Assembly (NCBI GenBank): GCA_000091205.1
Contig: AP006502.2
Length of the DNA stretch: 64,000 nucleotides
Strand: one strand, 5' to 3'
DNA from: Cyanidioschyzon merolae
Lineage: Eukaryota
Positions 1,837 through 57,509 of this stretch are shown piece by piece. The first letter of the stretch is position 1, and the number at the start of each line of letters is the position of its first letter. The notes under the pieces were generated by a model. That model did no database searches. It had not been told where the DNA came from and worked only from the letters and a program-made list of their open reading frames with translations. The position numbers and the translations under genes are program-made.

Positions 1837-4323
1837 TTAAGGCGCCACTGCGAGAATGCCGCGGACTTGGCTGGTACGATCACCAGCCTGCGAGCGATGC
1901 ATCCACCGACCGCAGTCCGGTCTCTGAATCTCCACGAATACTTCGGTTCGTGGACCAACTCGCTCAAGTACGACGTGTTGACACCAGCTTCGTATTGTCT
2001 CGGGACGACAACACGCATCCGTCTCGAGACGCAGTGTTACCAAAGCCCTATCCCAGGTCACAAAACAGATACGCAGGGAACGCATTACCGTGTGCCCATC
2101 GCTCAGGAGTGGATGCTGGAACAGCTCTGCAGTGAGCTTCCTCTGCTGGCGCTCCGCGTAGACACCCGCCAGCAATTCGTAGCACTGACGGACGCACGGC
2201 ATGGTCGTCACGAGGATGAGGCTGGCAATTAGCATCGAACAGACCGGATCACTCCAGGCGAGTCCCTGGTAGCGCACTAGAATACTGGTGATGATCACCC
2301 CGATGCTACCGAGGGTGTCGGCAAGCAGATGAAGGTACGCTGCCCCCATGTTTTGGGCACCGGCAGAACAAGATTCTCTCAGGTGATGATGATGATGATC
2401 ATGATGATCATGGAGCAACCACAGTCCCAGGATGTTCACTGCCAAACCTATACAAGCTACCGGCAAAAGCGGCTCCACCTGGAGCGGCAATGGTTCCACG
2501 AGCCTCCACAGCGCCTCTAACCCAATGTTGAGCGCAACCAGGCTGAGCACCAGAGCGTTGGTATAGCCGGCAAGCACTTGCATCCGCTGAAGACCGAACG
2601 GAAAGCGGCGACTTGGCGGAAGTGCCGCTCCGTAGGAAGCCAGCAACGCCAGGAGCAGCGCGGAAGCATCCAGCAGCATATGTGCCGCGTCCGACACCAG
2701 GCTCAACGAGTGCGACCAGCTCCCACAGACAAACTCTATCGATGCATATGATAGGTTCAAAAGCAAGGCGAAGAGCATTTTCCGTGCCTCTCGATGGTGT
2801 CGCACATGAGCCAAAAAGCGATACCAGTGGTGCCGCCAACGTGATCCAGGAGCGTCAAACGACGTCTCGACGTCGTATTCGCGGAAAAACTCGGAATCGA
2901 ATACGTCGCGTCCTTTATCGAGGCACTGGTTAGGCATCCACGGATCCAGAGCACATCGGTGCGCGGCAATCGTTCGCATACCCGAAAGTTGTGAAGCGTT
3001 TTCACCAGGTTCCGGGAGTTGATGGTTCCGCTCTTCACCCGCAATGCTCGTCAGTCGCTGCGGAGTGGCATCGGATTTTTGGCGGAGGCGCTGCACCAGC
3101 CACGATAGGATGCTTGCACTCGGCACCGTCAACCAGTACAGATGAAGTTCATAGCAACAGGCGGAAGCCTCGGTTTCTGGCAAACCCAAGTTAAACAAGA
3201 ACAATAACATAAACACGAGCGCTGCAAACAAAACCGGCGTCATGGTCTGAAGCTGCTCCAGGGGCTCACCGGGCGCGCTTCTCGTGAACCACGCCAGACA
3301 CCAATCCGCGGTGATGAGCACGCCCAAACGAAAAAAGAATACACTAAATTGAGCGATGCTTCGAGATTGTAAATGATCAACGAGGTAATCTTTGGGTACG
3401 CGTCTGGTCGGCAGCATCGCAAACAGGAAATGGAAGAGTCCATAGAGAACTAGCGCTGCGGTGGTAGCGATGAGGCGTCGGTGTGCTCGTTCCCGTCGCC
3501 GCAACAGCAGCGCGTATTCACCGGGCTCTCCTGCCATGTCCTGTTCGTGGCGCTGCTCTAGAAAGTGAGCGAGGGCAATATACAGAAGACCGATACCCAG
3601 GAGCGCTTTGTCGGTGACATCTCCCCAGAGCGTACTGTTGCCCGTGGCCTTGCTGGCAATGTAATCGCACGGCTCCCGGAAGCATTCCCAGAGCATCAGC
3701 GCCATCAGCACCACAGCTGACACCAAAGCAGCAATTGCGTCATGAAGGAGGATGGAGCGTTGTCTGTATCGCCAGCAGAGCGTCAGCGCCCGGAGCAAGG
3801 CGAGACCAGTTTGATCACAGAGGAGCACCAGCTGGGTGCCCTCTACTGCAGATCCGCAAAGTGCTAGTTTTGAAGCCGCCAACGTTACGCCTATGATATA
3901 TAAAAGCCGAAACCGAAGCACGTTGCTCAAGTCCAAAAGCCGGGTAAACCGTCTGGGTGCCGCCCGCTGAGCTCCTTCGCGGCGTTGCAGCAGCAGCAGC
4001 AGCCGTCTGTGCTGCTGCTGCTGCTGCTGCTGCAAGTCATGAACCCCAAAATCGGCATCTTCGCCAAGATCCATGACAACAGCAGCACCGTTTTCTATTC
4101 CCGTTCGGTTTACCCAGAGGCTTTGTGGCCGTATCCTTTTCACCAACACCAACAGGGGAGCGAGTCCGCAGGCTCCGACGAGACCCACCAGCCCGAGCGC
4201 TGCAAAGAGCAGGCCCACTGCGCCCGAGTCTGCTGGGTGCACCAGCGCGCTTAGGCCACAGGCTTCGGCGATCCGACCAACTTGAAACAGCAGACCGAGT
4301 TTGAAAAGCTGAACATCCATCAA
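1837..4323 (-). CDS. Cation diffusion facilitator (ZnT/SLC30-like) zinc transporter with a long N-terminal multi-TM extension and polyQ/polyL tract
   Basis: The C-terminal half carries CDF signatures: 'SWSHSLSLVSDAAHMLLD' (TM2 signature, ~2680-2740), a His-rich loop 'HDHHDHHHHH' (~2385-2415), and 'HLLADTLGSIGVII' (TM5 HxxxD). The N-terminal ~500 aa holds several hydrophobic helices, as in ZnT5/Msc2-type CDFs. It is an 828-aa uninterrupted ORF, and a (CAG)5...(CTG)8 tract at 3988-4034 encodes the Q/L run. Confidence 0.7.
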   Translation of the reverse strand: MMDVQLFKLGLLFQVGRIAEACGLSALVHPADSGAVGLLFAALGLVGLVGACGLAPLLVLVKRIRPQSLWVNRTGIENGAAVVMDLGEDADFGVHDLQQQQQQQHRRLLLLLQRREGAQRAAPRRFTRLLDLSNVLRFRLLYIIGVTLAASKLALCGSAVEGTQLVLLCDQTGLALLRALTLCWRYRQRSILLHDAIAALVSAVVLMALMLWECFREPCDYIASKATGNSTLWGDVTDKALLGIGLLYIALAHFLEQRHEQDMAGEPGEYALLLRRRERAHRRLIATTAALVLYGLFHFLFAMLPTRRVPKDYLVDHLQSRSIAQFSVFFFRLGVLITADWCLAWFTRSAPGEPLEQLQTMTPVLFAALVFMLLFLFNLGLPETEASACCYELHLYWLTVPSASILSWLVQRLRQKSDATPQRLTSIAGEERNHQLPEPGENASQLSGMRTIAAHRCALDPWMPNQCLDKGRDVFDSEFFREYDVETSFDAPGSRWRHHWYRFLAHVRHHREARKMLFALLLNLSYASIEFVCGSWSHSLSLVSDAAHMLLDASALLLALLASYGAALPPSRRFPFGLQRMQVLAGYTNALVLSLVALNIGLEALWRLVEPLPLQVEPLLPVACIGLAVNILGLWLLHDHHDHHHHHLRESCSAGAQNMGAAYLHLLADTLGSIGVIITSILVRYQGLAWSDPVCSMLIASLILVTTMPCVRQCYELLAGVYAERQQRKLTAELFQHPLLSDGHTVMRSLRICFVTWDRALVTLRLETDACCRPETIRSWCQHVVLERVGPRTEVFVEIQRPDCGRWMHRSQAGDRTSQVRGILAVAP

Positions 4324-4873: not shown

Positions 4874-6610
4874 ATGCGGCAGCAGCAGCAGCGGGCTCCG
4901 GTGTCCGCGCCTCCGCGTGGTACCTGGGCTGGCGCTCGGGCCCGCAAAGCGTGGAACGACCGAACGCTCGTATCCGCCGCCTTCGTCACGAGTAGTTTTT
5001 CTAGTCGTCGTCGTCGTCGTCGTTGTCAGTACTATGGTCAAACTGAACCCTTGTGCTTATCGCTGCTGCGACGCATCGACTGCCCGCACTGGGAAGCGTG
5101 CGCCGGCTGCACGCTACAAGACGCGACAGCGCAAGCAAGACCACCTATTTTCGAGCAAGTTGCAACGTTCTTCGCTGAAACCTTCGGATACCAGTTACCT
5201 GAGCCAGTGGTTGCGTCGAGTTCTCATCACTGGCGAACACTGGCCAAGCTCGCGGTTCGATGTGCACCAAAAACGCCCCACCAGAACAGGGTGGACAAAG
5301 TGCGCAGCTGGGCGCCACAATTGGGCCTGTTTCGAGCAGGTACTCATGAGGTCGTCGCGATACCCGAGTGCCAAGTACATCACGCTGCCCTGAACAAGGC
5401 GTTCAAGTGCTTGGAATGCGTTCTTGCCCGTTCCGCTGTAGCAATCTACGATGAGCGTCGACCCCGGCTGGAGTCGCTGCGCTACGTTCAGCTGGCCGTT
5501 GAACGCCGAACCGGCCGGGTGCAGCTGGTACTTGTCGGGTATCGGGAGCCGACCAGCCAGCCGGTTGCACCATCCCGACGGCGCACTGATGCCAGCTTGC
5601 TGACACCCACCTGGCGAATGCTCTGCGACCAGCTCTGGGAAGAGGGCAAGCGCTTCGGATCCAAGCAGCAGTTGTGGCATTCGATATGGGTGCATATGCA
5701 CGCTGGGCGAGGCAATGCCATTTTTGCATCGGCACATGAAGCGAGCCAAACGGAGACCGCCCAGTGGCAACAGGTGTACGGTGACGCGCCGTTTATCATC
5801 GACGAACCTCTGGCTGGTGAACCAGGCCCGGTGATGGTGCTCCCACCGTTCGCTTTCCAGCAGGCGAATCTGACTGCTTACCGGGCGATGTTACCGCTGA
5901 TCGGATTCTGGTGTATGCAGCCGCTGCCTAGCAGTGTCCAGCGACGCTGCAACGTTGCCGCGATGACCAGTCAGCCACAAGTCGGTACCGTGGCATCCAG
6001 GTCGATGCCAGTGCTCCGAATCGCCGAGTTCTGTGCGGGAGTCGGCTCGATTGGGCTCAGCGTTGTACGGCAAATGCAACAATTGCCGAATGCTCCTGCA
6101 CACATCTACCTCTGGGCGAGCGATATTCATCCGGGTGGCCAGGTTGCGTTCTGGGAAACAGCACGCCGTAATGGCCTTCTTGACGAACGGGTGAGGTCCG
6201 CACTCGAGCTGCGCTACCAAGTCGGGTCGCTGACGGCACTCGCACAGCGCGTCCATGACCCGAAGGTTGCGGCTTCGATCGTGATTGCGGACCCACCGCG
6301 TGCAGGTCTCGGACCAGTGTTCATCAGTGAGGTGCTGGGCAAAGCGTTGACTCCGTCCGCCACTGATGATGCTGCATCGAGTCGTCTGGAGCGCTTTATC
6401 TACGTGAGCTGTTCGATGTCATCGTTCATGCGGGATGTGCGACAACTGGTTTCTTTCGCACCGAATGATCGCAACAGAGACGCTTCTGAGCCGACGGTGT
6501 GCTGGACGTTACGTCACGCCCAACCGTATTTGTTTTTTCCTGGTGCAGATCACTTGGAAATGGTAGCTGTGTTTGACCGACAGGTTCGAGGACGTTGTCG
6601 GATGTCGTAA
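4874..6610 (+). CDS. RumA/TrmA-family SAM-dependent RNA (uracil-5)-methyltransferase, probably organelle-targeted
   Basis: Fe-S cluster motif 'CPHWEACAGCTLQD' (~5081-5110), SAM-binding 'IAEFCAGVGSIGLS', motif IV 'IVIADPPRAGLG' (~6285-6310) and C-terminal 'YVSCSMSSF', which carries the catalytic Cys. The N-terminus is Arg/Ser-rich ('SSRRRRRRC'), which fits a targeting peptide. Confidence 0.8.
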   Translation: MRQQQQRAPVSAPPRGTWAGARARKAWNDRTLVSAAFVTSSFSSRRRRRRCQYYGQTEPLCLSLLRRIDCPHWEACAGCTLQDATAQARPPIFEQVATFFAETFGYQLPEPVVASSSHHWRTLAKLAVRCAPKTPHQNRVDKVRSWAPQLGLFRAGTHEVVAIPECQVHHAALNKAFKCLECVLARSAVAIYDERRPRLESLRYVQLAVERRTGRVQLVLVGYREPTSQPVAPSRRRTDASLLTPTWRMLCDQLWEEGKRFGSKQQLWHSIWVHMHAGRGNAIFASAHEASQTETAQWQQVYGDAPFIIDEPLAGEPGPVMVLPPFAFQQANLTAYRAMLPLIGFWCMQPLPSSVQRRCNVAAMTSQPQVGTVASRSMPVLRIAEFCAGVGSIGLSVVRQMQQLPNAPAHIYLWASDIHPGGQVAFWETARRNGLLDERVRSALELRYQVGSLTALAQRVHDPKVAASIVIADPPRAGLGPVFISEVLGKALTPSATDDAASSRLERFIYVSCSMSSFMRDVRQLVSFAPNDRNRDASEPTVCWTLRHAQPYLFFPGADHLEMVAVFDRQVRGRCRMS

Positions 6611-11963: not shown

Positions 11964-13760
11964 GTGTTGCTTGCTTCTGATTGTGTTCACCAGTGCAAGG
12001 AGTCCTCGAACTCGTGCCCTCAGTGCCACGGCAGTCTCGTCATCGTGCCATCGGGTGAACACCTCTTTATTTCCCTTCTTCTTCTTATTTTTGGTCACTT
12101 GTGCTTCTTCGATGGCTTGTTGACAAGAAGAGGATTTATTCGTTTTTTTCCTGCAGGCGGAGATGGCGGCCTTCCAGGATCCTCCACTTGCCTGTCCATT
12201 GCTTCCCGTTGGATTTTTGTTTCTTCAAATGAACGCACTTCAGACGCATGAGCTGTAACCGCGAAAAAGTATATGATTTCGCACACCTAGGAGAGTTACC
12301 AATTGAAGGGAACGTCTAGCAACGGCAGACGGTGCCATTTCCGCACGTCCGGTAAAGGCGTCACGATTTCGCTGGACGCCACGAAGCACTGCTTCATATG
12401 ATCTTTCTACTCAGTTTTATGGAACGACTGCTGTGGTGTGTAGCAAGCCACGGAAATTACCATGCCATGTATCATGCAGGTCTTAGAAGAATTGCCTGTA
12501 GTTTCTATATTCTTAACTGAACATTGCAAGGAGGACTACATTCCTCTTCAGGTCAGTCATATCACAATACCCAGATGATTGGGGAACACTGGATGAAACA
12601 AGTAGATGCGCTCCGCGCGAAACACCGATATTCTCGAAGAGTCCTTGCGGTCAATGGTAGGACAGGATAAACACCATGTGGTAAGCGAAAGCGACGATCG
12701 CAGTCACCACGGGCGGCTGTGTTTCTCAACAACGTTTGAATATTGTCCTGAAAACTCTAGGATGCTGGCACAATACAGTGCTCGTACAATTACGGTCATC
12801 TTTCACCGAAATCGCTACGACAACGTTTCTGGAACATCGCGATCGGCATGAAGTACAGGGACGTCGGGTTGTTTTCTCAATCGATGAGACTGACTTGGGA
12901 CGAGCCAGTCGGAGTGTAAATGGGAATTCGCGGAGCATGGTGCCCGTTGTATTTACGATCGGACGCGAGGAGAAGGGTGGCATCATCTGTTCTAGGTGGA
13001 GCGGATTCATTATGCGACCTCGGATTCGCTCGCAGACATGGCTCATACAACAGCTTCGACCACTTTATCAAATCATTGAAGGCTTTTTTCCTGACGTCTC
13101 GCGCCATGCTTCCATGAAGCAACATGGCATTTGACCGGTCCCGTTGCGTTCGAGCTTTTGCCGATTCTGTCGGAATGTAGAGCCGCTTTTCATTGCTCGG
13201 TACCCGCGGTGGTTCAACTCCATCGAACACATGTTTTCTATCTTGAACCGTAATGATCGCTCCACTGGGCGAATCGCGGATGCTTCCAGAACACAGGGAC
13301 ACAACGGGGCACAGGTCGTGTTTGTTCCGCAAGCCCTTCTCGCTAGGGGCAGGTCCTCGTCGATGGTCATAACAAAGTGCGTCCATTCGAAGACAAAAAG
13401 ATCCAAGGGAAACTTTTGGTGATGCACGTCGGGGATCGTGGAAGCCTGGTGGCTCCAGGATCTACAAAGAAACGAACATATCCTCTTCTCTCCGAACAAG
13501 GAGCGAAGAGGAAGAGCACGGAAGATGGCGGAGGAGTCTGCCTGACGGGACGCCAACGGGACTGTCGAGACACAGAGGGAACGAGTTCGAGCAATCCTTG
13601 CATTGGAGCGTTCAATCATCGGCAAAAATCGCATGGAGTTCGTGAACCGAGACTTATATGCCTCCGCCTCTATCGGGCGACGTGCGGTGCCGAGGACGAG
13701 ACCCAGGTAGCTGACACGATCCGACTTTATGGGACAACCTCCCAGGATCGAACTGTACAA
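11964..13760. mobile_element. Degenerate transposon-like repeat locus with inverted internal duplications and TnpB/Fanzor-like ORF fragments
   Basis: The ORF 11964-12251(+) ('RRGFIRFFPAGGDGGLPGSSTCLSIASRWIFVSSNERT') and ORF 13367-13615(-) ('RRGYVRFFVDPGATRLPRSPTCITKSFPWIFLSSNGRT') are inverted, diverged copies of the same segment. ORF 12736-13134(+) is homologous to ORF 56513-56947(-). ORF 13068-13760(-) begins 'YSSILGGCPIKSDRVSYLG', matching 'YNSILGGCPAKLALANSGG' at 62880-63224(+). The region is AT-richer than the flanking genes. Confidence 0.35.
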
Positions 13761-15380: not shown

Positions 15381-16502
15381 TCATTCATCATCACACGAGG
15401 AGATGGCATGCTGCGGTGGTGCCTGCTCGTGACTGCGCAGCTCACGCAGTACGGCATCAAGCTGCTCTCGAAAGTGTCGCAGGCGCTGGCGTAGGCGCGT
15501 GTTCGCCTGAGCATTGGCGACGCAAGCGCGTCGCCAAGCGTCCGATTCAGAACGTAATCGAGTGATTTCCGCTCGCAAGCGCTGCAACTCCTCGCTAGCC
15601 TCCGTACTGCGACGGGCTGCTTGTGATTTAGGGTATGCGGTGTCGACACGAGACGGGCTGGCGCATCGAGTGGCGATTTTCGTATCTAGGGCGATGTTCG
15701 AGAATCTTGTTCCTCGTCTCCGATGTTGGTCGTCTCCCAACGACTGTGACTGTATCAAAGCACCGGACGATGTTCCATTGCGTATCTTAGGCACCGAACC
15801 GCGCGGAAGCCGAACCTGCGGCTGCCGTATCCGACTCGTCACCGGCGATAGGTCATCGGACTGCGCTCGGTTTACGAAACTCGACTCGGACCTGGAAGAC
15901 GAATTCGCTCGGCTTCCGTTGCGGCCATTCTGGAATCCGATGCCTGCTTCAGACGGATCACAAGGCTGCTTCCATTCAAAATACGACGGCGTCTCATCGA
16001 CGAGGCTCATATGAAGACCGCTTTGGATGCCTTCGAGCATGCGCTCCAATGGCGGGGTCCATGCTTCCGGATCCGTAGCTGACACTCGAGACATGTCCGC
16101 AGCAGCTTTGGTGTTTCCTTCGGTCGATAAGCACAGCACGTCTCGACTGGTAGACGAGGCGGCGCGGGTCCGGGCTCCGCCTCCTCGCGCAAGCCACGGA
16201 GTCCCATATGCTTGTTTCGAAGCAGCAGCAGCAGCAGCAGCAGCTGGTGTTGCGACAGACCGACTTTGTCTCAGCGCAAAGCTCCCCGGCACAACGACCT
16301 GTTCGTCGGAACGCGACCCCTCCGCCTCTTTCGGGCTGCTCGCTTCACCTGCCCGGCTGTCGAACAAGCCCGGCGTTCTGGACGTGCCATCTACCTGACG
16401 ACAGCGCCCGCGTTCTTTCGAAAATGTGAGCCTCCGAGCGACGTCCTCCATGAGGATCACGATATCTCGAGTACGTCCGCTTGGTTTAAGCGTGACGCCC
16501 AC
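15381..16502 (-). CDS. Hypothetical protein with polyA tract and C-terminal coiled-coil
   Basis: 373-aa ORF. The C-terminal 'EELQRLRAEITRLRSESDAWRRA...RLRQRLRHFREQLDAVLRELRS' has a heptad-like character, and a (GCA)8 tract at ~16221-16245 on the opposite strand encodes the AAAAAAA run. Confidence 0.3.
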   Translation of the reverse strand: MGVTLKPSGRTRDIVILMEDVARRLTFSKERGRCRQVDGTSRTPGLFDSRAGEASSPKEAEGSRSDEQVVVPGSFALRQSRSVATPAAAAAAAASKQAYGTPWLARGGGARTRAASSTSRDVLCLSTEGNTKAAADMSRVSATDPEAWTPPLERMLEGIQSGLHMSLVDETPSYFEWKQPCDPSEAGIGFQNGRNGSRANSSSRSESSFVNRAQSDDLSPVTSRIRQPQVRLPRGSVPKIRNGTSSGALIQSQSLGDDQHRRRGTRFSNIALDTKIATRCASPSRVDTAYPKSQAARRSTEASEELQRLRAEITRLRSESDAWRRACVANAQANTRLRQRLRHFREQLDAVLRELRSHEQAPPQHAISSCDDE

Positions 16503-18198: not shown

Positions 18199-19596
18199 AT
18201 GTTGATATTTTTGACTCCGGTAGAATGCATTTACGAGCGTCCAGCACCAACGTACCGAAACAAGGCCTTTACAACACCCGAAGTGCGCGTACCGCATCGC
18301 GAGCGACTGCATCGCGTTCGGCGTCGAGCACTGACCCCAGTGCGGGTGCCTGGGGTTGTCGCAATTGCCTCGGACGCCAACGAAGGATCTACTCCTTCCG
18401 ATGAACCCTGGTGGCGAGAACGCGCGAGGTTAGTGGTATCGAGACAGTCTCAGGCGACCGGAGACGCACCGACAAGTCGCCGGAGGTTTCTCCAAGCGCT
18501 CGTGCTGGCCTTGGTTGGTTTCGTTGCGGGTAGCCTTGGCAAAAGCGCTTCTTCAGGAAAAGCAGGGACGCAAGCGCAAGCAGTTACTTTGGCTCCGACA
18601 CCTATAAATCCGTATGCCCGCCGTCGTCAGAAGAAGCAGTACGAGAAATACCTCGAGATACAGAAAGCGCTCATTGAGCGCAATCGACTACGTCGCAAGT
18701 ATTCACGAAAGCCGCCTATAGATACGGATGCGCTTCCGTATTCCCTGTCAGCATTGAGTGCCTTTGTGGCTTCAGCAATCAGTACATTCATTGTACATCC
18801 TATTGACACGATCAAGACGCGGCTGCAGATGCGCGGAGCCTCGTGCCCGCTCCCGCCGAATCAGCTGTACCGAGGCGTTGTGTCCAATGTCTGGAAGGAG
18901 GCACCGAACGCAGCGATCTACCTAGGCGTCTATGAAGCCTTCAAGGATATATTCTTGCGAACACCAGTTCTGGGATCTTATCCAATGCTTTGCTTTCTGC
19001 TGGCCGGCGGGCTCGGGGATGCCATCGGTAGCGTCGTGCGGGTTCCGGCGGAGATTCTGAACAAGCGTTTGCAACTCGGTCTGAGCGCGACGCTAAGTGA
19101 TGCATGGCGCGAAGTGTTTTGCGATCCAAACAACCGGGAGGTTGTGAAAGTCACCTGGATGGCTGTGCTGGCGCGCGACGTTCCCTACGGTGCCTTGCAG
19201 ATCGCTTTCTATGAGCAACTGAAAATCCTGGTGTTGGTTCATCATGCAATGGGAGCGCAGAGCGCGAAGGGGCTCTTTCTTGATGCGTTACTGGGAGCGA
19301 TTGCGGGTTGTGCAGCCGCCTTCCTTACGACGCCAGCGGATGTTATCGTGACGAGGCTGGCGTCACAGTACCCCCAGTCGTACATAGATACACGGCGTTT
19401 TATGGGCGTTTTGGGTACCGCACGGCGCATCGTCGAGATGGATGGCTGGCGGGGCTTCTTCTCCGGATCCCTTCAGCGAGCCGCCTACTATGCGCCGCTG
19501 ATCGGCCTCTTCTTCTTCCTCTATGAGACGTGTCGCTATGTTGCGCTCCATCCAGAGACGGTGTCGCAGCTTGTCACCTCATACTTACCGTTATAA
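18199..19596 (+). CDS. Mitochondrial carrier family (SLC25) protein, S-adenosylmethionine-carrier-like, with a ~180-aa N-terminal extension
   Basis: Three carrier repeats with signature motifs: 'VHPIDTIKTRLQ', 'RVPAEILNKRLQ' and 'TTPADVIVTRL'. Repeat 1 closely matches SAM carrier 'P(I/L)DT(I/L)KTRLQ'. The long N-terminal extension could be a targeting sequence. Confidence 0.8.
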   Translation: MLIFLTPVECIYERPAPTYRNKAFTTPEVRVPHRERLHRVRRRALTPVRVPGVVAIASDANEGSTPSDEPWWRERARLVVSRQSQATGDAPTSRRRFLQALVLALVGFVAGSLGKSASSGKAGTQAQAVTLAPTPINPYARRRQKKQYEKYLEIQKALIERNRLRRKYSRKPPIDTDALPYSLSALSAFVASAISTFIVHPIDTIKTRLQMRGASCPLPPNQLYRGVVSNVWKEAPNAAIYLGVYEAFKDIFLRTPVLGSYPMLCFLLAGGLGDAIGSVVRVPAEILNKRLQLGLSATLSDAWREVFCDPNNREVVKVTWMAVLARDVPYGALQIAFYEQLKILVLVHHAMGAQSAKGLFLDALLGAIAGCAAAFLTTPADVIVTRLASQYPQSYIDTRRFMGVLGTARRIVEMDGWRGFFSGSLQRAAYYAPLIGLFFFLYETCRYVALHPETVSQLVTSYLPL

Positions 19597-19990
19597 GCAG
19601 CGAGCGTGTGCGAACGACGGTGTGATGGATGAGGAGGATTTCGCGAGTGCCGTGTTACACTGTGCTGTTCGACGATTCGGGGCATGGCAGGTCGCTTCAG
19701 ACCGTTCAGGCGAGCTGCTGCCGTCCGACGCCCTGCAGCACACACTGTGTAGGGTGACTCTACGGTCCAGCGTGTTTTTTCGATACGAACACGCTCGAGG
19801 ACAGCAGCAGACTCGCCGTAGTGGATTCGCTCGGGAAATAGCGTGACTCTCGTCAGGTGTATGCCTGTAAAAAGATTGTTAGCTGCAGGATACGAGTTTC
19901 CATTGCCGTTCTGGAAACGCGCAGCTTCCTCAACAGCAGACACCGGGCACGAAGTTTCTCGTCGATATCGCTTTCGAGCGAGCAGGAGCA

Positions 19991-20656
19991 TTGCGGACGA
20001 AGCAAATGGTCGTTTTCGATCTGTCGTGGACACTGGTCCAGGCGGATAGCTTCGAGCTCCTCTGCCAGGCGGCTGCAGTGGATGCGGATGCAGTCGCGGA
20101 AGTGCGTCGTTGTCACTCGCTCGGATCCGACGACGACTTGCGAGCGTGTGCTGCGCTCCTTCGCGGTCGATCGAGCACTGGCTTAGCAGAAAGACTACAC
20201 GCGCTTATCGAATATACCGATGGAGCCGCTTCGGTCTGTCGCGTACTGAAGAAACTCGGCTACCGAACGACGGTGTTGTCGCCGGGGCGCTCGTTCTTGC
20301 GAGAGCTTGTGAAAGCAGACCTCGGTATTGATTTCGTTGCGGCCAATCGTCATGAAATGGACAGCAATGAGCATTTCACCGGAGCGATCTTGGAGCTTCT
20401 CGTCAACGGAGAGCGGAAAGCAGAGCTGCTGACCATGCTGGCGATGCGCGAGCAGCTCAGCCCGCAGCAGATCATTGCGGTAGGTGACGGGCCAGTGTCC
20501 GCCAAAATGCTTGACTCGGCGGGTCCATCCATCGCCTTTGGAGCACCAGCGGCTCGGGACGGCACCAATATCGGCGGCAAGATTCAGAGCAAGAGTCTCA
20601 CCTGCATCTGGTTCCTGATGGGTATCCACGAGCGCGATCTACGGTCATTTTCATGA
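19991..20656 (+). CDS. Phosphoserine-phosphatase (SerB)-like HAD-superfamily protein with substituted catalytic motifs
   Basis: It aligns to SerB: 'VVFDLSWTLVQADSFELL...VAEVRRCHSLGSDDDLRACAALLRG' against 'ICFDMDSTLIQ.E.IDE...VAEVTERAMRGELDFTASLRSR'. Motif IV 'IAVGDGPVSAKMLDSAGPSIAFGA' aligns to 'AIGDGANDLPMIKAAGLGIAYHA'. Motif I is DLSWT rather than DxDST, and motif IV is GDGPVS rather than GDGAND. Confidence 0.65.
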   Translation: MRTKQMVVFDLSWTLVQADSFELLCQAAAVDADAVAEVRRCHSLGSDDDLRACAALLRGRSSTGLAERLHALIEYTDGAASVCRVLKKLGYRTTVLSPGRSFLRELVKADLGIDFVAANRHEMDSNEHFTGAILELLVNGERKAELLTMLAMREQLSPQQIIAVGDGPVSAKMLDSAGPSIAFGAPAARDGTNIGGKIQSKSLTCIWFLMGIHERDLRSFS

Positions 20657-21007
20657 ATAGAGTCACGTTTGCACTTGTTGACGACCGAGCGCGCTTTGCG
20701 TCACCATTGTCGATGATGCCGCTTTCTGAGACCAAATGGTGGCTCATTCTACGAATTCGCCGAAACAATACCGTGATGCGTTGCAAGCAGGCGCTCTTCA
20801 TCGCGTTTGCCATGGCATGCCGCTTCCTCGCTGCGCAGTCGATGCGTCGCCTGCGGAGCAAAATCGCCGACAAGCGCGCTCCAGTACTGGTCGTGCAAAG
20901 CAGTCTGAGTGTTGGACCTTTGATACCTTCCAATCTGTTCGGAACGTTGGCAGGTCTTTCGAAGGCTAGACTATGAAGGAGTAAACGTCGTAGCGTCGTC
21001 GGATCGC

Positions 21008-22372
21008 ATGCGGTGCCTGTGCTGGACGAATGCGCTTGATCCACTGTACCGGCTGGCTGGACGGCAGGCGTTGCGGCTGCGCGGGCACCAGTCCTGGTGG
21101 CGTTACCAACACTGTATGCTTCACCAACGAGCACAAGCATGTACTGGTGCGGAGCGCTCTGCCCAGTGGTCGCTGATACGGTCTGCTCAGAACGCGAAAC
21201 TCAAGTTGTTGCGACAAATCCTGCGCAAGGGTAGCTTGGTGCTCGACTCGCCGAGCGCCTCGTCATCGCTGGGGAGCAGCGCGCCAGACCGCCGGTTTCT
21301 ACAGCTTGTGAAAGAGCGCGAGTCAGAAAACAGCTATACGGCAGCCTTAGCGGAGCGCTGCTTGCGACCACAGCTGTTTGTTGTAGAAGGGGCGCGATTA
21401 TTGCAGGACGCACTGGATGTGCACTGGGCTCCTGAGTTCATTATTTGCTCAGCTGATGCTGTGCAGGGGCTGTGGCGTCGTCACCCGCAGCTCATGGGAA
21501 AAATTTCGACCGACGGGCTTTTGCAGCAACGCACCTTTGTGTGCGAGACGGAACTGCCTACTGAAACAGTCCACTCGCAGGGTATTGTGGGGGTGTTTCA
21601 ACGGAAATGGCTGCCATGGGATCAGCAGCGAACGCTAGTGCTCTTTCTTGATGGCGTCCAGGACCCGGGTAATCTTGGGACGATCCTTCGCTCGGCATGT
21701 GCAGCTGGGTGCCGCACGCTCCTGCTCAGTGATCAATGCGTTGATGCCTGGAGTTCGAAGGTCGTGCGGGCAGGTATGGGTGCTCATTTCCGCCAGTGTA
21801 TCGTTGATAAGGTTTCGCTGGAGCATCTGGAGTGCCTGCTCGACTTGTTGGTCATGGTGCCGGGAACCGATGCACCCTGTTGTGCATCCCGCGAAGCACA
21901 CAGCGCAGCGGAGGTCAAAGAGGCCGGTCTGAAGCCGCCCGCATCGGATCGGGGACACAATTTGAGCCGCATTCACCACCACGGGCAACGATATCGATTC
22001 GTCATTGCTCATCCAAAAAAAGTACCGGGGCTTGCTCATTTCTCCTACGATGATGATGCAATCTGGTTGAGAGCATCCAATTTAGATGCGAAGAAAACTA
22101 GAGCAACGGGTACAGCAGGGAAAATACCGCCTCATCGAGACATCAGGACACCCACGCTAGATATCCTGGTGATTGGAAACGAAGCACATGGCCCGAGTGC
22201 TGCAATTTTCGATTTCGCCCAGAGCGTAACCGGTTCATGTACAGTGGCTATTCCTCTCGACTCGGGCGTTGAGTCCTTGAACGCTGCTGCTGCTGCATCA
22301 ATTCTTCTTTTCGAAGCCCGCAGGCAGCGTCAAAAGTTCGAGGAATCCACGGGCGCTGCAGAGACCCTCTAA
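21008..22372 (+). CDS. SpoU/TrmH-family RNA 2'-O-ribose methyltransferase with N-terminal extension and an internal low-complexity insert
   Basis: SPOUT motifs: 'LVLFLDGVQDPGNLGTILRSACAAG' (motif 1), 'LVIGNEAHGPS' (motif 2) and 'VAIPLDSGVESLNAAAAASILLFE' (motif 3). The ~200-aa N-terminal region has no similarity I recognise. Confidence 0.8.
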   Translation: MRCLCWTNALDPLYRLAGRQALRLRGHQSWWRYQHCMLHQRAQACTGAERSAQWSLIRSAQNAKLKLLRQILRKGSLVLDSPSASSSLGSSAPDRRFLQLVKERESENSYTAALAERCLRPQLFVVEGARLLQDALDVHWAPEFIICSADAVQGLWRRHPQLMGKISTDGLLQQRTFVCETELPTETVHSQGIVGVFQRKWLPWDQQRTLVLFLDGVQDPGNLGTILRSACAAGCRTLLLSDQCVDAWSSKVVRAGMGAHFRQCIVDKVSLEHLECLLDLLVMVPGTDAPCCASREAHSAAEVKEAGLKPPASDRGHNLSRIHHHGQRYRFVIAHPKKVPGLAHFSYDDDAIWLRASNLDAKKTRATGTAGKIPPHRDIRTPTLDILVIGNEAHGPSAAIFDFAQSVTGSCTVAIPLDSGVESLNAAAAASILLFEARRQRQKFEESTGAAETL

Positions 22373-25255: not shown

Positions 25256-26917
25256 GTGTCCGAGCAGATGCAACTTGACAATGGTTCGATTGCGACGTCG
25301 CTGGTGCACGTTGCGACACCAGCAGCAGAGCACGTGTACTGCGTAGCCTGCCAGTGGTCTCCGGCGGACGGGGTCGCTGCTTCAGACGCCAACAACGGCC
25401 ACTCTGCTCCCAGTAAAGCGCTTTCGCCCGAGGCACTGCTCGAAAAGAGACGGCAGCACTACCGCTCTGACTGGCACCGCGTCAACCTGAAGCGTCGCAC
25501 CGCTCAACTACCACCTCTATCGGAGGCTGAGTTCACGGAACGGTGCAGGAACTGGGAAAGCGGCGGTGAAACCGTTCAGATGGATTTCGGCGGACTCGAG
25601 GACGAGAACACCTCAAGCAGCGAGGAACCCTGGAGCAGCTACAGCGTGAAAGTACCTGTGGGATCTGCGCTACCTGAGGACGCCCTGTTCTCCGCCGCTC
25701 GATTTGCGAGGTCGTCAGCCGTGAACGGCGAGCGTCAACCCAGCAGCCGCCGTGTGGCATGCATCTGGTGTCTGAAAGAGTTTTCCAGTGAGAAAGCCCT
25801 GCAACAACACGAGCGTACCGCGAGGCATCGAGAGAAGCTGCGAGAACTTGGCATCCCAGAATCTGATGAGCAGCACCAGCACCAGAAGCAGCAGCAGCAG
25901 CAGCAGCAGCTCATCTCCGGTGCATCAAAGGAAACGAGTCTCGAAACTGCAGACCTGGACGCTTGGCTCGCTGAGCGCATGCAAGAAGCGCGTCCCCTTG
26001 ATATCCACGAATGTCTTTTCTGTAACCACAAGGTTGCCGTTGACGAGAATGTTTCAGAACAGGAGCGCAGCGGCGCTCTCCTTGCAAATCTCCGCCACAT
26101 GGCCAAAGAGCACTCATTCTTTGTGCCCTATATAGAGTACTGCTATGATCTTGCCGGACTCGTACGATACCTGGGAGTCAAGGTCGGTCTTGGCTACTGT
26201 TGCGTGTTCGGGGGAAGGGTCGTGCCGCTCTCGCAAGACACTACGGACTCCGCGGAGCAGCTGTTCGAGCGTCGTGCGGAGGTATTCAGCAGCTTACAGG
26301 CCTGTCGAAATCATATGCGAGATGCTGGGCACTGCCGGTTGCCCGATTTTGATCAGGAGGAGGTTTGGGATGAGTATCAGGAATTCTACAGTTTTACCCC
26401 AGTACGAGCAGACGCGCTGCTGTCGTCTGCCGCGGATGCGAGCGAAGCGCTTTCTCCAGGCACGCCACATGAGGCTGCGGGTGAGGCTGAGTCTGTCGCT
26501 CTTGCGCCATGGGAAAAGTGGGTCTCGGTCGCCGAGGCACCGAGATCTACGCACCCACCAGATGAAGAAGTTGTTGGCCTTCAACTAGGTGCGAGTGGAC
26601 GAACTATTGCACACCGGTCTCTCTGGCGATACTATCGCCAGCGTGTGCATGATCATCACCGCACGCAGCTACCTGTCTGCATTGCTCGACAAGAGCGCCA
26701 GCAGATGGTGCTGGCTTATCAGGAGCTCGCCCACACGGCTGCAATCGGCTTCACTGGACCCGCAGCGTCGCAGCCGTATCCCAGTATTCCACCACGTCGA
26801 GTGCTTGAGCGCTGGCGACGCGACCAGCTCGCACTGGCTGAACGGAACGCAGCGACGCGCCGCGGCCGGGCAGCACGTTCATCCATAGCGGTGCTGAACT
26901 CTGGCTATCGTGGCTAG
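25256..26917 (+). CDS. REI1: Cytoplasmic pre-60S ribosome biogenesis factor REI1/ZNF622 homologue (C2H2 zinc fingers)
   Basis: The first zinc finger plus 'HYRSDWHRVNLKRRTAQLPPLSEAEF' (~25465-25530) matches REI1 'SDWHRYNLKRR'. A second pair, 'CIWCLKEFSSEKALQQHERTARH' and 'CLFCNHK...HSFFVPYIEYCYDLAGLVRYLGVKVGLGYCCVFGG', matches the REI1 C-terminal finger 'CLFC...HGFFIP..EYLVDLEGL..YLGEKV..G..CLYC'. A polyQ run comes from (CAG)8 at ~25886-25909. Confidence 0.85.
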   Translation: MSEQMQLDNGSIATSLVHVATPAAEHVYCVACQWSPADGVAASDANNGHSAPSKALSPEALLEKRRQHYRSDWHRVNLKRRTAQLPPLSEAEFTERCRNWESGGETVQMDFGGLEDENTSSSEEPWSSYSVKVPVGSALPEDALFSAARFARSSAVNGERQPSSRRVACIWCLKEFSSEKALQQHERTARHREKLRELGIPESDEQHQHQKQQQQQQQLISGASKETSLETADLDAWLAERMQEARPLDIHECLFCNHKVAVDENVSEQERSGALLANLRHMAKEHSFFVPYIEYCYDLAGLVRYLGVKVGLGYCCVFGGRVVPLSQDTTDSAEQLFERRAEVFSSLQACRNHMRDAGHCRLPDFDQEEVWDEYQEFYSFTPVRADALLSSAADASEALSPGTPHEAAGEAESVALAPWEKWVSVAEAPRSTHPPDEEVVGLQLGASGRTIAHRSLWRYYRQRVHDHHRTQLPVCIARQERQQMVLAYQELAHTAAIGFTGPAASQPYPSIPPRRVLERWRRDQLALAERNAATRRGRAARSSIAVLNSGYRG

Positions 26918-48671: not shown

Positions 48672-49769
48672 TCAGCGCCGGCAAGTTGGCCATTTGCCGG
48701 GCGTGTCCGCAGTGGCAAGTGTTGTGGGCGAAAAGTCCTCGTCGCTCTTCAGCGCGCGCCCCGAGCCATTTTCAAACTTTTCAATACCCCTGAGAGTGGC
48801 ACATTCCAAGTAATCCATGCTCGTGAGCGTCCTCCTTTCCCTGCTTACAGCTGGGGTGCGGCACGATTCGCCGGCTTCAAACTGGGATACCATTTGTCTC
48901 TTGCAGGATCCGTCGCCACAAACGGAAAGACTCGGCGCATTGAGGGCGTCGAGCCTGCCAGAGGGATTCATCAAACTCTGGGATGGAGAATGGACCCATG
49001 GCGCATGTGCGGCGAGCGCTGTCGACTCCGTGTCGAAGATTGACTCCCTGCGACTGCTTTTCCGTGCCAATGGCACAGTTTGGTGCCCAGTTGCGGAGGT
49101 GACGCACTCAGATGCGCATCTTTCCATGGACTGCGAGGATAACGCGGTCGCAGACTGTTCACTGCCATATCTTCGAGTCGATGGCGACACGCGCTGGTTC
49201 CGCTGAGATCGCCGGACGCGCGCGCGGCGATTGTTGAACCAGGTGGTTAGTTTTGCCTCCGGTTGCTGAAATGCTCGAGCGAGACGCTGAATATCATCGC
49301 GAGATGGATACTGGTTCTCCGCATACACTGCCTTTAGCACCTGTTGTTGCTCCGGAGTGAATATTCGGGCACCTTTTTTGGTGGACGTAAACGGTTTCGG
49401 CCGACTCTGGCGGGAACTTTTTCGCTCAGGCTCGAAGTGTCGGTACTCGTCATGCGCAGTATCAGCCCCGCGCCCACCAATAGCTCCATGCGTATCCCGA
49501 GGCGATACGGGATCCGGTTTATCCCACTGGCATGCGGGTTCCGCAATCTCCATGGATTGCGGCGTCTGTGCTACAGCCACAGCAGCGGTTGCGATCATCT
49601 CGAGTCCTTTGAAGCTTTGATCGAACCGTCCAGGCAGTCGGGTCTCTCGAAGTCGATTTTGGTAGTCGAGGTTCATATCCTGCGTCGTAAACGCACCGAT
49701 TTGCAGTCCCGGGCTTCCGACTACAACTGTCCTTGTCTCGGGGAGCCCGCGGTTACCATCGCTCGACAT
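48672..49769 (-). CDS. Homeodomain transcription factor (classic 60-aa, non-TALE homeobox)
   Basis: 'KKGARIFTPEQQQVLKAVYAENQYPSRDDIQRLARAFQQPEAKLTTWFNNRRARVRRSQ' at ~49200-49380 fits the homeodomain consensus, with helix 3 'WFNNRRAR'. The rest of the protein is low-complexity. Confidence 0.7.
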   Translation of the reverse strand: MSSDGNRGLPETRTVVVGSPGLQIGAFTTQDMNLDYQNRLRETRLPGRFDQSFKGLEMIATAAVAVAQTPQSMEIAEPACQWDKPDPVSPRDTHGAIGGRGADTAHDEYRHFEPERKSSRQSRPKPFTSTKKGARIFTPEQQQVLKAVYAENQYPSRDDIQRLARAFQQPEAKLTTWFNNRRARVRRSQRNQRVSPSTRRYGSEQSATALSSQSMERCASECVTSATGHQTVPLARKSSRRESIFDTESTALAAHAPWVHSPSQSLMNPSGRLDALNAPSLSVCGDGSCKRQMVSQFEAGESCRTPAVSRERRTLTSMDYLECATLRGIEKFENGSGRALKSDEDFSPTTLATADTPGKWPTCRR

Positions 49770-54948: not shown

Positions 54949-56390
54949 GACAGTGGGACCGACGAGGAACTAGGTGGGCCTTTGTAACAGCAGCTGCAGC
55001 AGCCGCAGCAGCAGCACAACGGGTCGCATCCGAAAAACCTCTGTACAGCGGCTCGCATTTCAGCGTCTGAGAAAACGGGTGTTCTCGCCGAGGCTAGCCG
55101 CCTGCGGATCTCGAATTCGATGTTGCTTCGGCTGCTGACAAGCGCCAGCCTGCTGCCTCATTTCATCATGAGTTTTACGTTTCTAAAAATGGATAGCTTG
55201 CATTAGATTTTGCGTTGCTGTATAGAGGCCGTTCTACACAAGGATATCATGGAAGTTCTTTCCAATCGAGGGTAATTTGCGTTCGAACCTAATCATGTAG
55301 CTGACTCCGAGTACCCGCAGACCTGCATTGGAAGAAGCTGTGCAGGATCGAAAGCTGTAAAAGATACCTATGGACACGTCGACCTAGCTCTCTGCGCTCA
55401 GCGTGCGTCGAAGTAGATGCATACAGTCGGTCGCACGAAGCTGCTTCTTTTTCCAAGTGGGTAACGTGCACTAAACCACTGCGAGATTCACATGCAACTC
55501 TGAACTTGTCGCTCTGTTGCTGCTCTTCATTTTTCTCTTCCCAACTTTTTTAAATGGTCAACTTCGGCGTTTGAGGAGAAGCAGTAAGGACTTTCGGACT
55601 CATATGCAGTTTTCAAATGCTCTGTCGTCTTTTCAGAGTGATTTCAATGACGCCTTGTCGCTGGAATTCGTCACGACCTCTGAATCAAGATCATTCGCGA
55701 CACGCTGGAACAAGGGTACCTAAAATAACCCAAATCCTTATCGGATGCATATGCACAAGCCTTTCATCTTGTTGTTTCCCGAACAACAGCATGTTCAAAT
55801 CACAAAGTCTTCATGTGTGCGATTTTGCTTTTCCAACGCAAGTTATGGGCGAAGCAATTTTCGCAGAGGTAAAGCCTTTTTCGACCGACCACCACCTATT
55901 GACGTCAGCTTCCTCCTGCACACCTCAAGTCTGAGAGACTGCCCCATAAACCTGCATCGCGTCAGCTCCTCGGTTCTCTTCTTCAGCACTATATATCGTC
56001 GGATACTGAAGGTGACGTTGGAGTCTCGTTTCACGAACTCCTCGCATATATTGCCGCTTGTTGAATTCACCCATGCAAGGATTGCCAGAACACGAGTACT
56101 CAGTACCATTGACTGCTCTGTCAGCTCTCCGTACTTTTCTATCGCGCGAAGCGCTCCGCTGCCTTCTCTCTATCTCGATGTTCTGAAGTGTACACCGCAG
56201 CTCATCCCTTGGATTTCTTATTTCTTCAAATGGCGCGCTTCTTTATGCCGTTAGATGAGGAGCTAACCGGAGCGAGAAGGGCTTGCAGACGAAGGACGCA
56301 ATGTGGCCAGGTACCAATGTGTGCTGAACGCTGCAGCGACTCGCCCCGTTGAGCATTAAAAACGTCTCATAATAGAAAAAAACACTTTCT

Positions 56391-56950
56391 ATGGGGCTCA
56401 ACCACGGATTATATCGAGGAATGAAAAGCAGCTCTATTCTCCGATCGAATCAGCAAACATTCGAACGCAAGGGGAATGGTGAAATACCAAGCCGTACAAC
56501 CGGACGACGTCGTCAGACGTCAGGGGAAATTTCTTCAACGATTCGGTACAGTGTGTGCTGTTCTACGAGCCTTCTCTCTGAGCGAAACTGCGGCCGCCAA
56601 ATGAATCCACTGCAGCTCAAACAGTTGATGATGTCCTCGCTCTCATCAAGTTCGATCATACATACAGCTGGCTCCATCTCCGCGACTACCCATGTACGCC
56701 CCGACCATTTCGGCCAAAGAAAGTCGCATCGTCTGAAAAAGACAGAGCTACGTCTCTGTGCTTCGTGCCGATCGGGACGTTCCGGGAACGCTGTCGTTGC
56801 GAATTCGATACAAGACGGCTGTGCATGAACCAGGACTTTATCGCGACTGCATGCCAGTGCATTCAGGATCACACGAATTAGCTGGCGAGAAAAACAGATA
56901 GAGGTGATGGGTATCATCGTCGCTTTCCCCTTCCCTAAAGTAATCAACGG
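56391..56950 (-). mobile_element. Copy of the dispersed repeat family (homologue of the 12606-13134 ORF)
   Basis: ORF 56513-56947(-) '...SCIEFATTAFPERPDRHEAQRRSSVFF...CSCSGFIWRPQFRSERRLVEQHTLYRIVEEISPDV*' matches 12736-13134(+) '...SFTEIATTTFLEHRDRHEVQGRRVVF...CSRWSGFIMRPRIRSQTWLIQQLRPLYQIIEGFFPDV'. The opposite-strand ORFs 56391-56828(+) and 12606-12851(+) are also alike. AT-richer context. Confidence 0.4.
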
Positions 56951-57509
56951 GTCGTTTTTCTACCAGTGAACGCAAGCACACTTTGAGTATATCTGGTTTC
57001 GGTGCGGATCGCATGTACTTGCTTCTTTATTTCAGTGTTCCTCGTCCATCTGAATACTGTGGTGAACCGTACCTGAACGAGGAATGCAGTCCACCTTGCA
57101 CCGTTCAGTAAAGAATATATATCTAACATTCTATTCGTCTACGATCTATACAGCACATTGCTTCTACATCTCGACCTTCTGCTATACACATCAACATAGC
57201 ATACGAATACGCATAGCAGGAATGGAGCCTCATGGAGTCGCGCTGGTGAGCAGAGAGCGTCTCGAGCGTCCGCATGGGATGCGTTTCTGGATGGACAGAA
57301 TTCGAACGACCAAGAACGGCAGTGCAGTACAGTGCAGTTTGGGAATCCTCAGCTAGCCGACTTGGGGCTTGTGAACGTGTGTGAGCGGATGCGCATACGC
57401 ACCGCTCCATACATAAAAACGAACCTTCTTTGCCATATTCATGCTTCGTGGTCCGTATACTCTGCACTGCAGTGCACGGGTACCGAACAATATGCAACTC
57501 TAGTTCTGC

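Follow-up and report, generated by a model that had tools for sequence, protein, structure and literature searches.

A red-algal SerB2-like protein family with a remodeled HAD active site and its truncated duplicate in Cyanidioschyzon merolae

Introduction

Phosphoserine phosphatases (PSPs) of the SerB2 type, such as Mycobacterium tuberculosis Rv3042c and Mycobacterium avium SerB2 (PDB 3p96/5is2), combine two ACT domains with a HAD domain (ACT-ACT-HAD), and they are the best match, in both sequence and structure, to a protein family that we describe here from red algae. The family is approached through an open reading frame (ORF) for a SerB-like HAD protein in a 64,000-nucleotide stretch of contig AP006502.2 of Cyanidioschyzon merolae (assembly GCA_000091205.1); this whole stretch is called the window, and positions in it are counted from its first nucleotide. 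In M. tuberculosis SerB2 (MtSerB2), the D185N (nucleophile), S273A, and D341N/D345N mutants are inactive (PMC4270767, Table 2), and motif IV of HAD proteins is defined as (G/S)(D/S)xxx(D/N) (PMC4270767).

The window ORF is a partial copy of a longer gene, here called the parent gene, which shares with SerB2-type PSPs the three-domain architecture, the C1-capped HAD fold, the nucleophile Asp, the motif II Ser, the conserved Lys, and the first motif IV Asp. The variant family to which both belong differs from SerB2-type PSPs in having Ser at the Asp+2 position and Trp at Ser+3, SSG for SGG, PVS for AND, Asp for the substrate Glu, and, in C. merolae, Cys for Arg56. The window copy additionally has no ACT domains and scores below the serB equivalog cutoff.

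Pseudoenzymes that regulate active homologs include the trypanosomatid AdoMetDC "prozyme" and the HAD-fold pseudophosphatase Tim50. The red-algal variant resembles them in being a conserved, inactive-looking paralog beside an active enzyme, with a fusion in another lineage that suggests joint function; it differs from them in that its nucleophile is kept. In P-type ATPases, the motif DKTGT has Thr at Asp+2 and forms a long-lived aspartyl-phosphate; there, as in the variant, a hydroxyl residue replaces the Asp+2 acid/base, although these enzymes belong to another HAD branch and have a different cap and substrate. The red-algal protein is a SerB2 paralog and candidate pseudoenzyme of a known type rather than a new category, and the variant itself has no paper in the literature searched, which included the supplements of PMC5715807 and contained nothing on red-algal PSP variants or on the accessions reported here.

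Results

Catalytic motifs and fold of the window protein

The protein matched exactly, in the protein collection, BAM83459.1/XP_005539495.1 of C. merolae 10D, which has 216 amino acids and is annotated as "similar to phosphoserine phosphatase." By exact look-up, it and both flanking proteins are annotated on the 1.62-Mb chromosome of the 10D nuclear genome. The original prediction had placed the ORF at 19991-20656; the ORF exists, but the TTG start at 19991 is an artifact of listing under the bacterial code, and the true start is the ATG at 20006. The ORF and its motifs are as follows.

20006..20656, + strand: ORF for BAM83459.1, 216 codons plus stop; HAD/PSP domain only; its ATG corresponds to a Met inside the parent protein
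20015..20032, + strand: motif I, FDLSWT, compared with FD[VM]DST; Asp5 and Thr9 kept, Asp+2 changed to Ser7 and Ser+3 to Trp8
20276..20287, + strand: motif II, LSPG, compared with SGG; Ser92 kept; Pro93 specific to this copy (Ser in the family, Gly in canonical SerB)
20417..20419, + strand: motif III Lys138 (in GERKAEL), kept; column invariant in the alignments
20483..20500, + strand: motif IV, GDGPVS, compared with GDGAND; Asp161 kept, Ala changed to Pro163, Asn to Val164, and Asp to Ser165

The whole-length alignment with SerB that had been proposed from the sequence was recovered by TIGR00338 (serB; E = 6e-29, residues 2-206) and, in HMMER searches, by M. avium SerB2 from the PDB (E = 8.5e-18, residues 1-211) and the M. 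jannaschii PSP (MjPSP) structure 1f5s (E = 4.9e-13). The Pfam HAD family PF12710 matched above its cutoff (E = 4.6e-13), and the TIGR00338 score of 101.2 bits lay below the equivalog cutoff of 144.15. The AF2 model of the 216-residue protein had a pLDDT of 90.3, and its best global fold match in Foldseek was SerB2 (TM 0.85), with 1f5s at TM 0.79. AF2, Foldseek, and Pfam together placed the Rossmannoid core of the HAD superfamily and a C1 cap in the protein, and the claim that the fold is retained was upheld.

HMMER alignments likewise bore out the predicted change of Asp+2 to Ser in motif I: the general acid/base is Ser7 in the window protein and Ser in 100% of the red-algal variants. Motif IV does read GDGPVS in place of GDGAND, but the Asp that is lost is the second acidic residue of the pair, its position being occupied by Ser165 and not by D or N, and the first, Asp161, is present; in the MjPSP structures (1F5S/1L7M), it is the equivalent of Asp161 that ligates Mg directly. 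The equivalents of MjPSP Glu20 and Arg56, which bind the substrate and, in the case of Arg56, the serine carboxylate (1L7P structure), are Asp14 and Cys48. A further MjPSP residue, Asn170, a phosphate ligand, is replaced by Val in the red-algal variant. In MtSerB2 numbering, the variant keeps the equivalents of D185, S273, K318, and D341 and is changed at D187, N344, and D345, and the Ser neighboring D187 is Trp. In 207 canonical relatives, the same alignment columns hold DxDST/GDGAND, and no other register gives the window protein canonical residues.

An active site remodeled once and then conserved in red algae

The 90% cluster of the window protein also holds a second C. merolae protein with the same motifs, BAM81736.1, which is encoded on the 908-kb chromosome and is the product of the parent gene. 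Its length is 475 amino acids in 10D and 533 to 534 amino acids in metagenome gene calls. The AF2 model of the 534-residue form aligned with M. avium SerB2 over ~458 columns, indicating an ACT-ACT-HAD architecture, and orthologs of the parent matched ACT_6. Residues ~133-186 of the parent protein (~6400-6560 of metagenome locus L001) form a low-complexity disordered insert in the first ACT domain, which is found in Cyanidiales orthologs only and is missing from the other red algae.

Homologs were collected with the full-length parent as the query and an exhaustive search of representatives; the 216-residue query alone gave three canonical matches. The orthologs share the signature FDLSWTLVQ(A/C)D ... 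(V/L)(S/T)SG ... RK ... GDGPVS(A/S)(K/R)ML, and full-length members came from Cyanidiococcus, Cyanidium caldarium, Chondrus crispus, Agarophyton chilense, and a dozen further assemblies. Among 1.84 billion representatives scanned exhaustively with HMMER, only ~25 had the signature, and the named ones of these include Galdieria phlegrea and Rhodosorus marinus. The altered motifs thus span the Cyanidiophyceae, the Florideophyceae, and Rhodosorus, at least three red-algal classes. Of the other domains listed in a motif table of 288, nearly all had DMDST/SGGF/GDGAND, the main exceptions being dinoflagellate units.

When the variant clade was compared with the 207 canonical sequences, the positions conserved within both sets but different between them were 6 (M>L), 7 (D>S), 8 (S>W), 14 (E>D), 93 (G>S), 113 (A>G), 163 (A>P), 164 (N>V), 165 (D>S), and 180 (A>Q), nearly all of them in or beside the catalytic motifs. 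Among 24 red-algal representatives, L6, S7, P163, and S165 were conserved in 100%, V164 in 96%, and W8 in 88%, and the nucleophile Asp, the Thr, the motif II Ser, the Lys, and the first motif IV Asp were invariant. The Glu20 position is Asp throughout the family; the Arg56 equivalent is mostly kept but is Cys in Cyanidioschyzon and Cyanidiococcus. Mean pairwise identity was 0.56 in the variant clade and 0.55 in canonical SerB, and dN/dS in the variant family was 0.061 between two Cyanidiococcus lineages.

At about ten positions of the active site, therefore, a single remodeling took place, after which the residues stayed fixed: DMDST became DLSWT, the substrate Glu became Asp, SGG became SSG, GDGAND became GDGPVS, and AKP became QP. 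The motif changes represent an old signature kept under strong purifying selection, neither decay nor sequencing error. No other part of the variant family is as conserved as its active site, which favors a site in use over a dead one.

The window ORF is a partial duplicate

The DNA of the parent locus was taken from near-identical metagenome loci (e.g., L001), since exact look-ups of the 10D proteins on contigs were empty. The duplicated block and the genes on either side of it in the window are as follows.

19945..20824, + strand: segmental duplication of 880 bp, comprising 61 bp of formerly coding sequence 5' of the ATG, the 216-codon ORF, and ~170 bp of 3' flank
18199-19596: neighboring mitochondrial carrier gene (Pfam)
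21008-22372: neighboring SpoU methylase gene (Pfam)

In blastn, positions 6894-7773 of L001 matched the window as a single ungapped 880-bp block with 93.5% identity, the short copy and the parent being distinguishable at 57 sites; the block corresponds to the last 236 codons of the parent gene and ~170 bp of its 3' flank. In tblastn, the match of the 534-residue parent form was confined to residues 299-534, at 19946-20653, and residues 1-298, which hold the ACT domains, had no match anywhere in the window. The 20 codons 5' of the window ATG are still in frame with the parental ...FLVDIAFERAGALRTK...; farther 5', similarity is lost and stop codons appear. In all haplotypes, similarity fades 5' of ~19945 and 3' of ~20825. 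The window ORF is a HAD-domain-only partial duplicate of the longer gene, inserted between the mitochondrial carrier and SpoU methylase genes, and it lacks both ACT domains because only the 3' part of the parent was copied.

At the parent locus, the gene order is GMC oxidoreductase, PsaO, the parent gene, and a mitochondrial carrier (Mito_carr), and this order is syntenic in Cyanidiococcus yangmingshanensis, which indicates that the parent is ancestral and the window copy derived. Co-duplication of the neighboring mitochondrial carrier genes was considered and rejected, as the shared DNA is limited to the 880 bp. Overlapping the stop codon of the window copy is a 107-codon ORF at 20653-20976 (+ strand), which several metagenome annotations treat as a gene; it lies for about one-half of its length within the copied 3' flank and has no support as a real gene.

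The copy evolves without detectable purifying constraint

Copy and parent differ at 28 of 648 coding sites (22 nonsynonymous and 6 synonymous), with a pairwise dN/dS of 1.24 and codon-position counts of 9/13/6, that is, with no third-position bias. Polarization with two Cyanidiococcus orthologs as the outgroup assigned 19 nonsynonymous and 1 synonymous changes to the copy lineage and 1 and 4, respectively, to the parent lineage. Six changes in the copy fall at positions conserved in ≥90% of the family: A89T, S93P (beside the motif II Ser), P131L, Q180A, L202W, and L205M. The differences include the following patches.

20248..20301, + strand: patch most divergent from the parent, codons 81-99, with 10 of the 28 coding mismatches; AVLSSGPLLLAEL in the parent became TVLSPGRSFLREL
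20526..20618, + strand: two more copy-specific nonsynonymous patches, AGLSIAFEQPG to AGPSIAFGAPA and LTSILFLLG to LTCIWFLMG

The window copy evolves without detectable purifying constraint and, as a truncated copy, is the least informative member of the family. It was found in five environmental haplotypes, making six with 10D, always in the same context of carrier gene, copy, and SpoU gene. The altered motifs, the conservation of which had been proposed as a check, were identical in these six haplotypes and in all red-algal orthologs, and they are therefore not sequencing errors. Parental tracts lie inside the short copy in two haplotypes, at positions 102-392 (L012) and 102-130 (L011), which implies ongoing ectopic gene conversion; in L012, conversion has restored the parental state in place of the patch at 20248..20301. 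The window copy thus illustrates, on a small scale and in nature, how a partial gene duplicate can go on exchanging sequence with its parent by ectopic gene conversion.

Canonical SerB2 in red algae and tandem proteins in dinoflagellates

A canonical ACT-ACT-PSP seed retrieved proteins of Gracilariopsis, Agarophyton, Gracilaria, Pyropia, Compsopogon, Porphyridium ("SerB2"), Galdieria (three species), Cyanidium caldarium, and Cyanidiococcus yangmingshanensis, and every canonical red-algal protein inspected had DMDSTLIQQE/SGGF/GDGAND. The variant and canonical genes occur together in Cyanidiococcus (canonical protein P0380), Cyanidium (P0375), and Agarophyton (P0341). The canonical SerB2 proteins (Cyanidiococcus F1559_001192, which is P0380; Porphyridium purpureum P0376) are thus found in the same organisms as the variant and have the same ACT-ACT-HAD architecture, with ~28% identity to it, and they differ from it in their motifs, DMDSTLIQQE, SGGF, and GDGANDLPML. 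Canonical SerB2 is presumably the working PSP of red algae.

An environmental homolog (L017, positions 775-1875; JGI 3300009503) encodes a canonical ACT-ACT-PSP that is 85% identical to the Cyanidiococcus enzyme, with the eukaryotic neighbors UMP1 and an ABC transporter, and its ORF runs on upstream of the called start. This protein could be the canonical SerB2 of C. merolae; the GC and GC3 contents of L017 fit C. merolae and Cyanidiococcus alike. Two other canonical matches were judged not to be red-algal: P0002, the closest, which shares "RVLKKLG," lies on a eukaryotic, probably fungal, contig with Mdm12, and P0187, which had the highest identity of the canonical matches, has gyrase and EF-P as neighbors and is bacterial.

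Dinoflagellate proteins of 600 to 1150 amino acids (P0169-P0193, from MMETSP; Biecheleria cincta, e.g., P0183 and P0320) contain two ACT-ACT-HAD units each. The C-terminal unit is a canonical PSP in most of them, and the N-terminal unit has FGLSxVL, with the nucleophile lost (Gly), and a variable motif IV. In nearly all members, the N-terminal unit has, like the red variant, Leu-Ser at +1/+2 and Asp at the Glu20 position, and about half of the N-terminal units also have the Pro of motif IV and a second Ser directly following that of motif II. Unlike the red variant, the N-terminal unit has no nucleophile and is covalently fused to a canonical unit, and it is less conserved, with a pairwise identity of 0.39. 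In a neighbor-joining tree, the N-terminal unit grouped with the red variant with a bootstrap value of 0.92. That a variant-type unit is fused to a canonical one suggests that the two act jointly.

Discussion

On balance, we lean toward the reading that the variant family acts as a slow or nonhydrolyzing, ligand-binding partner or regulator of canonical SerB2 and that the window copy is an unconstrained, truncated offshoot of it. The equivalents of MtSerB2 D185, S273, K318, and D341 are kept, so binding of Mg2+ and of a phosphoryl group is very probably still possible in the variant, while the usual proton shuttle and one phosphate ligand are gone. In this scheme, the canonical paralog would carry out phosphoserine hydrolysis, and the variant would bind Mg2+ together with a phosphoryl or serine-like ligand; with the Asp+2 acid/base, the Asn, and the second Asp missing, its turnover would be slow or nil. 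The variant might then be a partner that senses ligands for the canonical enzyme or regulates it, probably in a heterodimer comparable to the SerB2 homodimers, a role supported by the dinoflagellates, which encode related degenerate and canonical units in one polypeptide. The window copy, which lacks the ACT domains and, as far as visible, the promoter of its parent, is most likely an offshoot on the way to becoming a relic, held similar to the parent by gene conversion.

Two marks of a pseudoenzyme are present in the variant family, namely, purifying selection (the dN/dS of 0.061) and an active-type paralog in the same genome, as in Cyanidiococcus, Cyanidium, and Agarophyton. The original prediction had called the window protein a candidate pseudophosphatase with a regulatory or binding role or a changed chemistry. 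The motif changes on which it relied are genuine, but "pseudo" is not established, as the nucleophile Asp, the motif II Ser, the Lys, and the first motif IV Asp are all kept; a noncanonical role fits the canonical SerB2 paralog found in red algae, but the ORF that was singled out is the truncated, unconstrained copy and not the conserved gene. The canonical paralog that it proposed to look for in this genome was found in other red algae.

Several observations weigh against the favored reading. The lost residues correspond to MtSerB2 D187 and D345, each of which is individually dispensable there, the equivalents of D185, S273, and D341 being kept: Vmax is retained at ~80% in D187N (Asp+2), ~45% in D345N, ~15% in D341N, and ~50% in K318A (PMC4270767, Table 2). 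Since single mutants at both lost Asp positions stay active, impaired catalysis in the variant is something that we infer. The near-invariance of the remodeled residues and the nucleophile would fit an active enzyme with a new chemistry equally well. The search with the canonical seed returned no match named C. merolae, and the grouping of the red variant with the dinoflagellate N-terminal unit could be the result of long-branch attraction. For the window copy as a relic, truncation relative to the parent and relaxed constraint were found, but the frame is not disrupted, the ORF being intact in all six haplotypes sampled, and MtSerB2 reduced to its PSP domain is active in vitro (PMC4270767). 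Furthermore, the 19:1 ratio on the copy lineage exceeds the neutral expectation of 3:1 (binomial p of ~0.02-0.04, assuming independent changes) and could mean positive selection, and the full-length metagenome alleles P0012, P0013, and P0018 carry short-copy patches, which reflect either reciprocal conversion between chromosomes or assembly chimeras in the metagenomes.

The main rival, which we rate as less likely than the favored reading, is that the DLSWT/GDGPVS family, perhaps with the short copy, is an active HAD enzyme of changed chemistry or substrate that forms an aspartyl-phosphate on Asp5. Because the Asp+2 acid/base is absent, as in P-type ATPases, such an enzyme might use substrates with good leaving groups, form a long-lived phospho-enzyme, or transfer the phosphate; alternatively, it might be a second, slower PSP isozyme. 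The invariant catalytic residues, the freezing of the substituted ones, as expected of a functional pocket, the low dN/dS (0.06), and the activity of the MtSerB2 D187N and D345N mutants all agree with an active enzyme, as do the Arg56 equivalent kept in most red-algal members and the conservative change of Glu20 to Asp. However, the active site carries four or five changes at once, among them Asn170 to Val and a bulky Trp beside the acid/base position; the TIGR00338 score is below the cutoff (101 versus 144); a canonical paralog coexists in red algae; the homologous dinoflagellate unit has no nucleophile; and the Arg56 equivalent is lost (Cys) in Cyanidioschyzon and Cyanidiococcus.

For the window copy itself, neofunctionalization into a stand-alone HAD protein, with the ACT domains lost and with positive selection in the regions of motif II and the C-terminal helices, seems doubtful. 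The excess of nonsynonymous changes, an ORF that is intact with its ATG and in the same context in six haplotypes from different samples, a confident AF2 model despite the substitutions, and the active isolated domain of MtSerB2 all speak for such a protein. However, the changes are grouped into three short stretches, with adjacent double changes in two codons, so there may have been only ~7 independent events, in which case the excess is not significant; we therefore do not take positive selection as shown. An ORF with 28 substitutions would stay open by chance in about one-third of cases by our estimate, prolines have entered family-conserved positions (S93P beside the catalytic Ser and L174P in the strand after motif IV), and gene conversion repeatedly overwrites the copy.

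A more speculative and rather improbable extension is that the red-algal DLSWT/GDGPVS proteins constitute a HAD class of their own, with Ser/Trp for Asp+2, in which a phosphoryl group, drawn either from phosphoserine or from an activated donor, would be held on Asp5 or relayed as a phospho-Asp sensor or switch for serine metabolism, together with canonical SerB2, and that dinoflagellates inherited this partnership as a fusion.

The notion that the altered motifs are an artifact of sequencing or assembly error, misalignment, or recent decay of a normal SerB, the outcomes that would have spoken against the prediction, has nothing in its favor other than the truncation of this copy and is refuted by the same motifs in the parent, in independent metagenome haplotypes, and in orthologs from at least three red-algal classes and by HMM and structural alignments that leave no other register for DxDxT or GDGxND.

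Databases name both C. merolae genes and all red-algal orthologs "phosphoserine phosphatase," and, given the canonical SerB2 paralog in red algae, metabolic reconstructions that use the variant as the PSP step may assign the wrong gene. Together, the conserved, remodeled paralog and the dinoflagellate fusion make a tractable candidate for a system in which algae with red-type plastids would regulate serine synthesis through a pseudoenzyme-type protein or a phospho-switch, and C. merolae is amenable to gene targeting.

Other features of the window

A dispersed repeat of ~1 kb with ~70% identity occurs in the window at 12478-13399 (+ strand) and 55996-57149 (- strand) and also at 364-1512 of L001, beside the parent locus on the other chromosome; the ORF at 13068-13760 (- strand) within this repeat had no Pfam match. 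The long window ORFs at 4874-6610, 15381-16502, and 57510-60104 likewise had no Pfam match. Further genes assigned by Pfam encode a cation-efflux family transporter and C2H2 zinc-finger and homeodomain proteins, at 1837-4323 (- strand), 25256-26917 (+ strand), and 48672-49769 (- strand).

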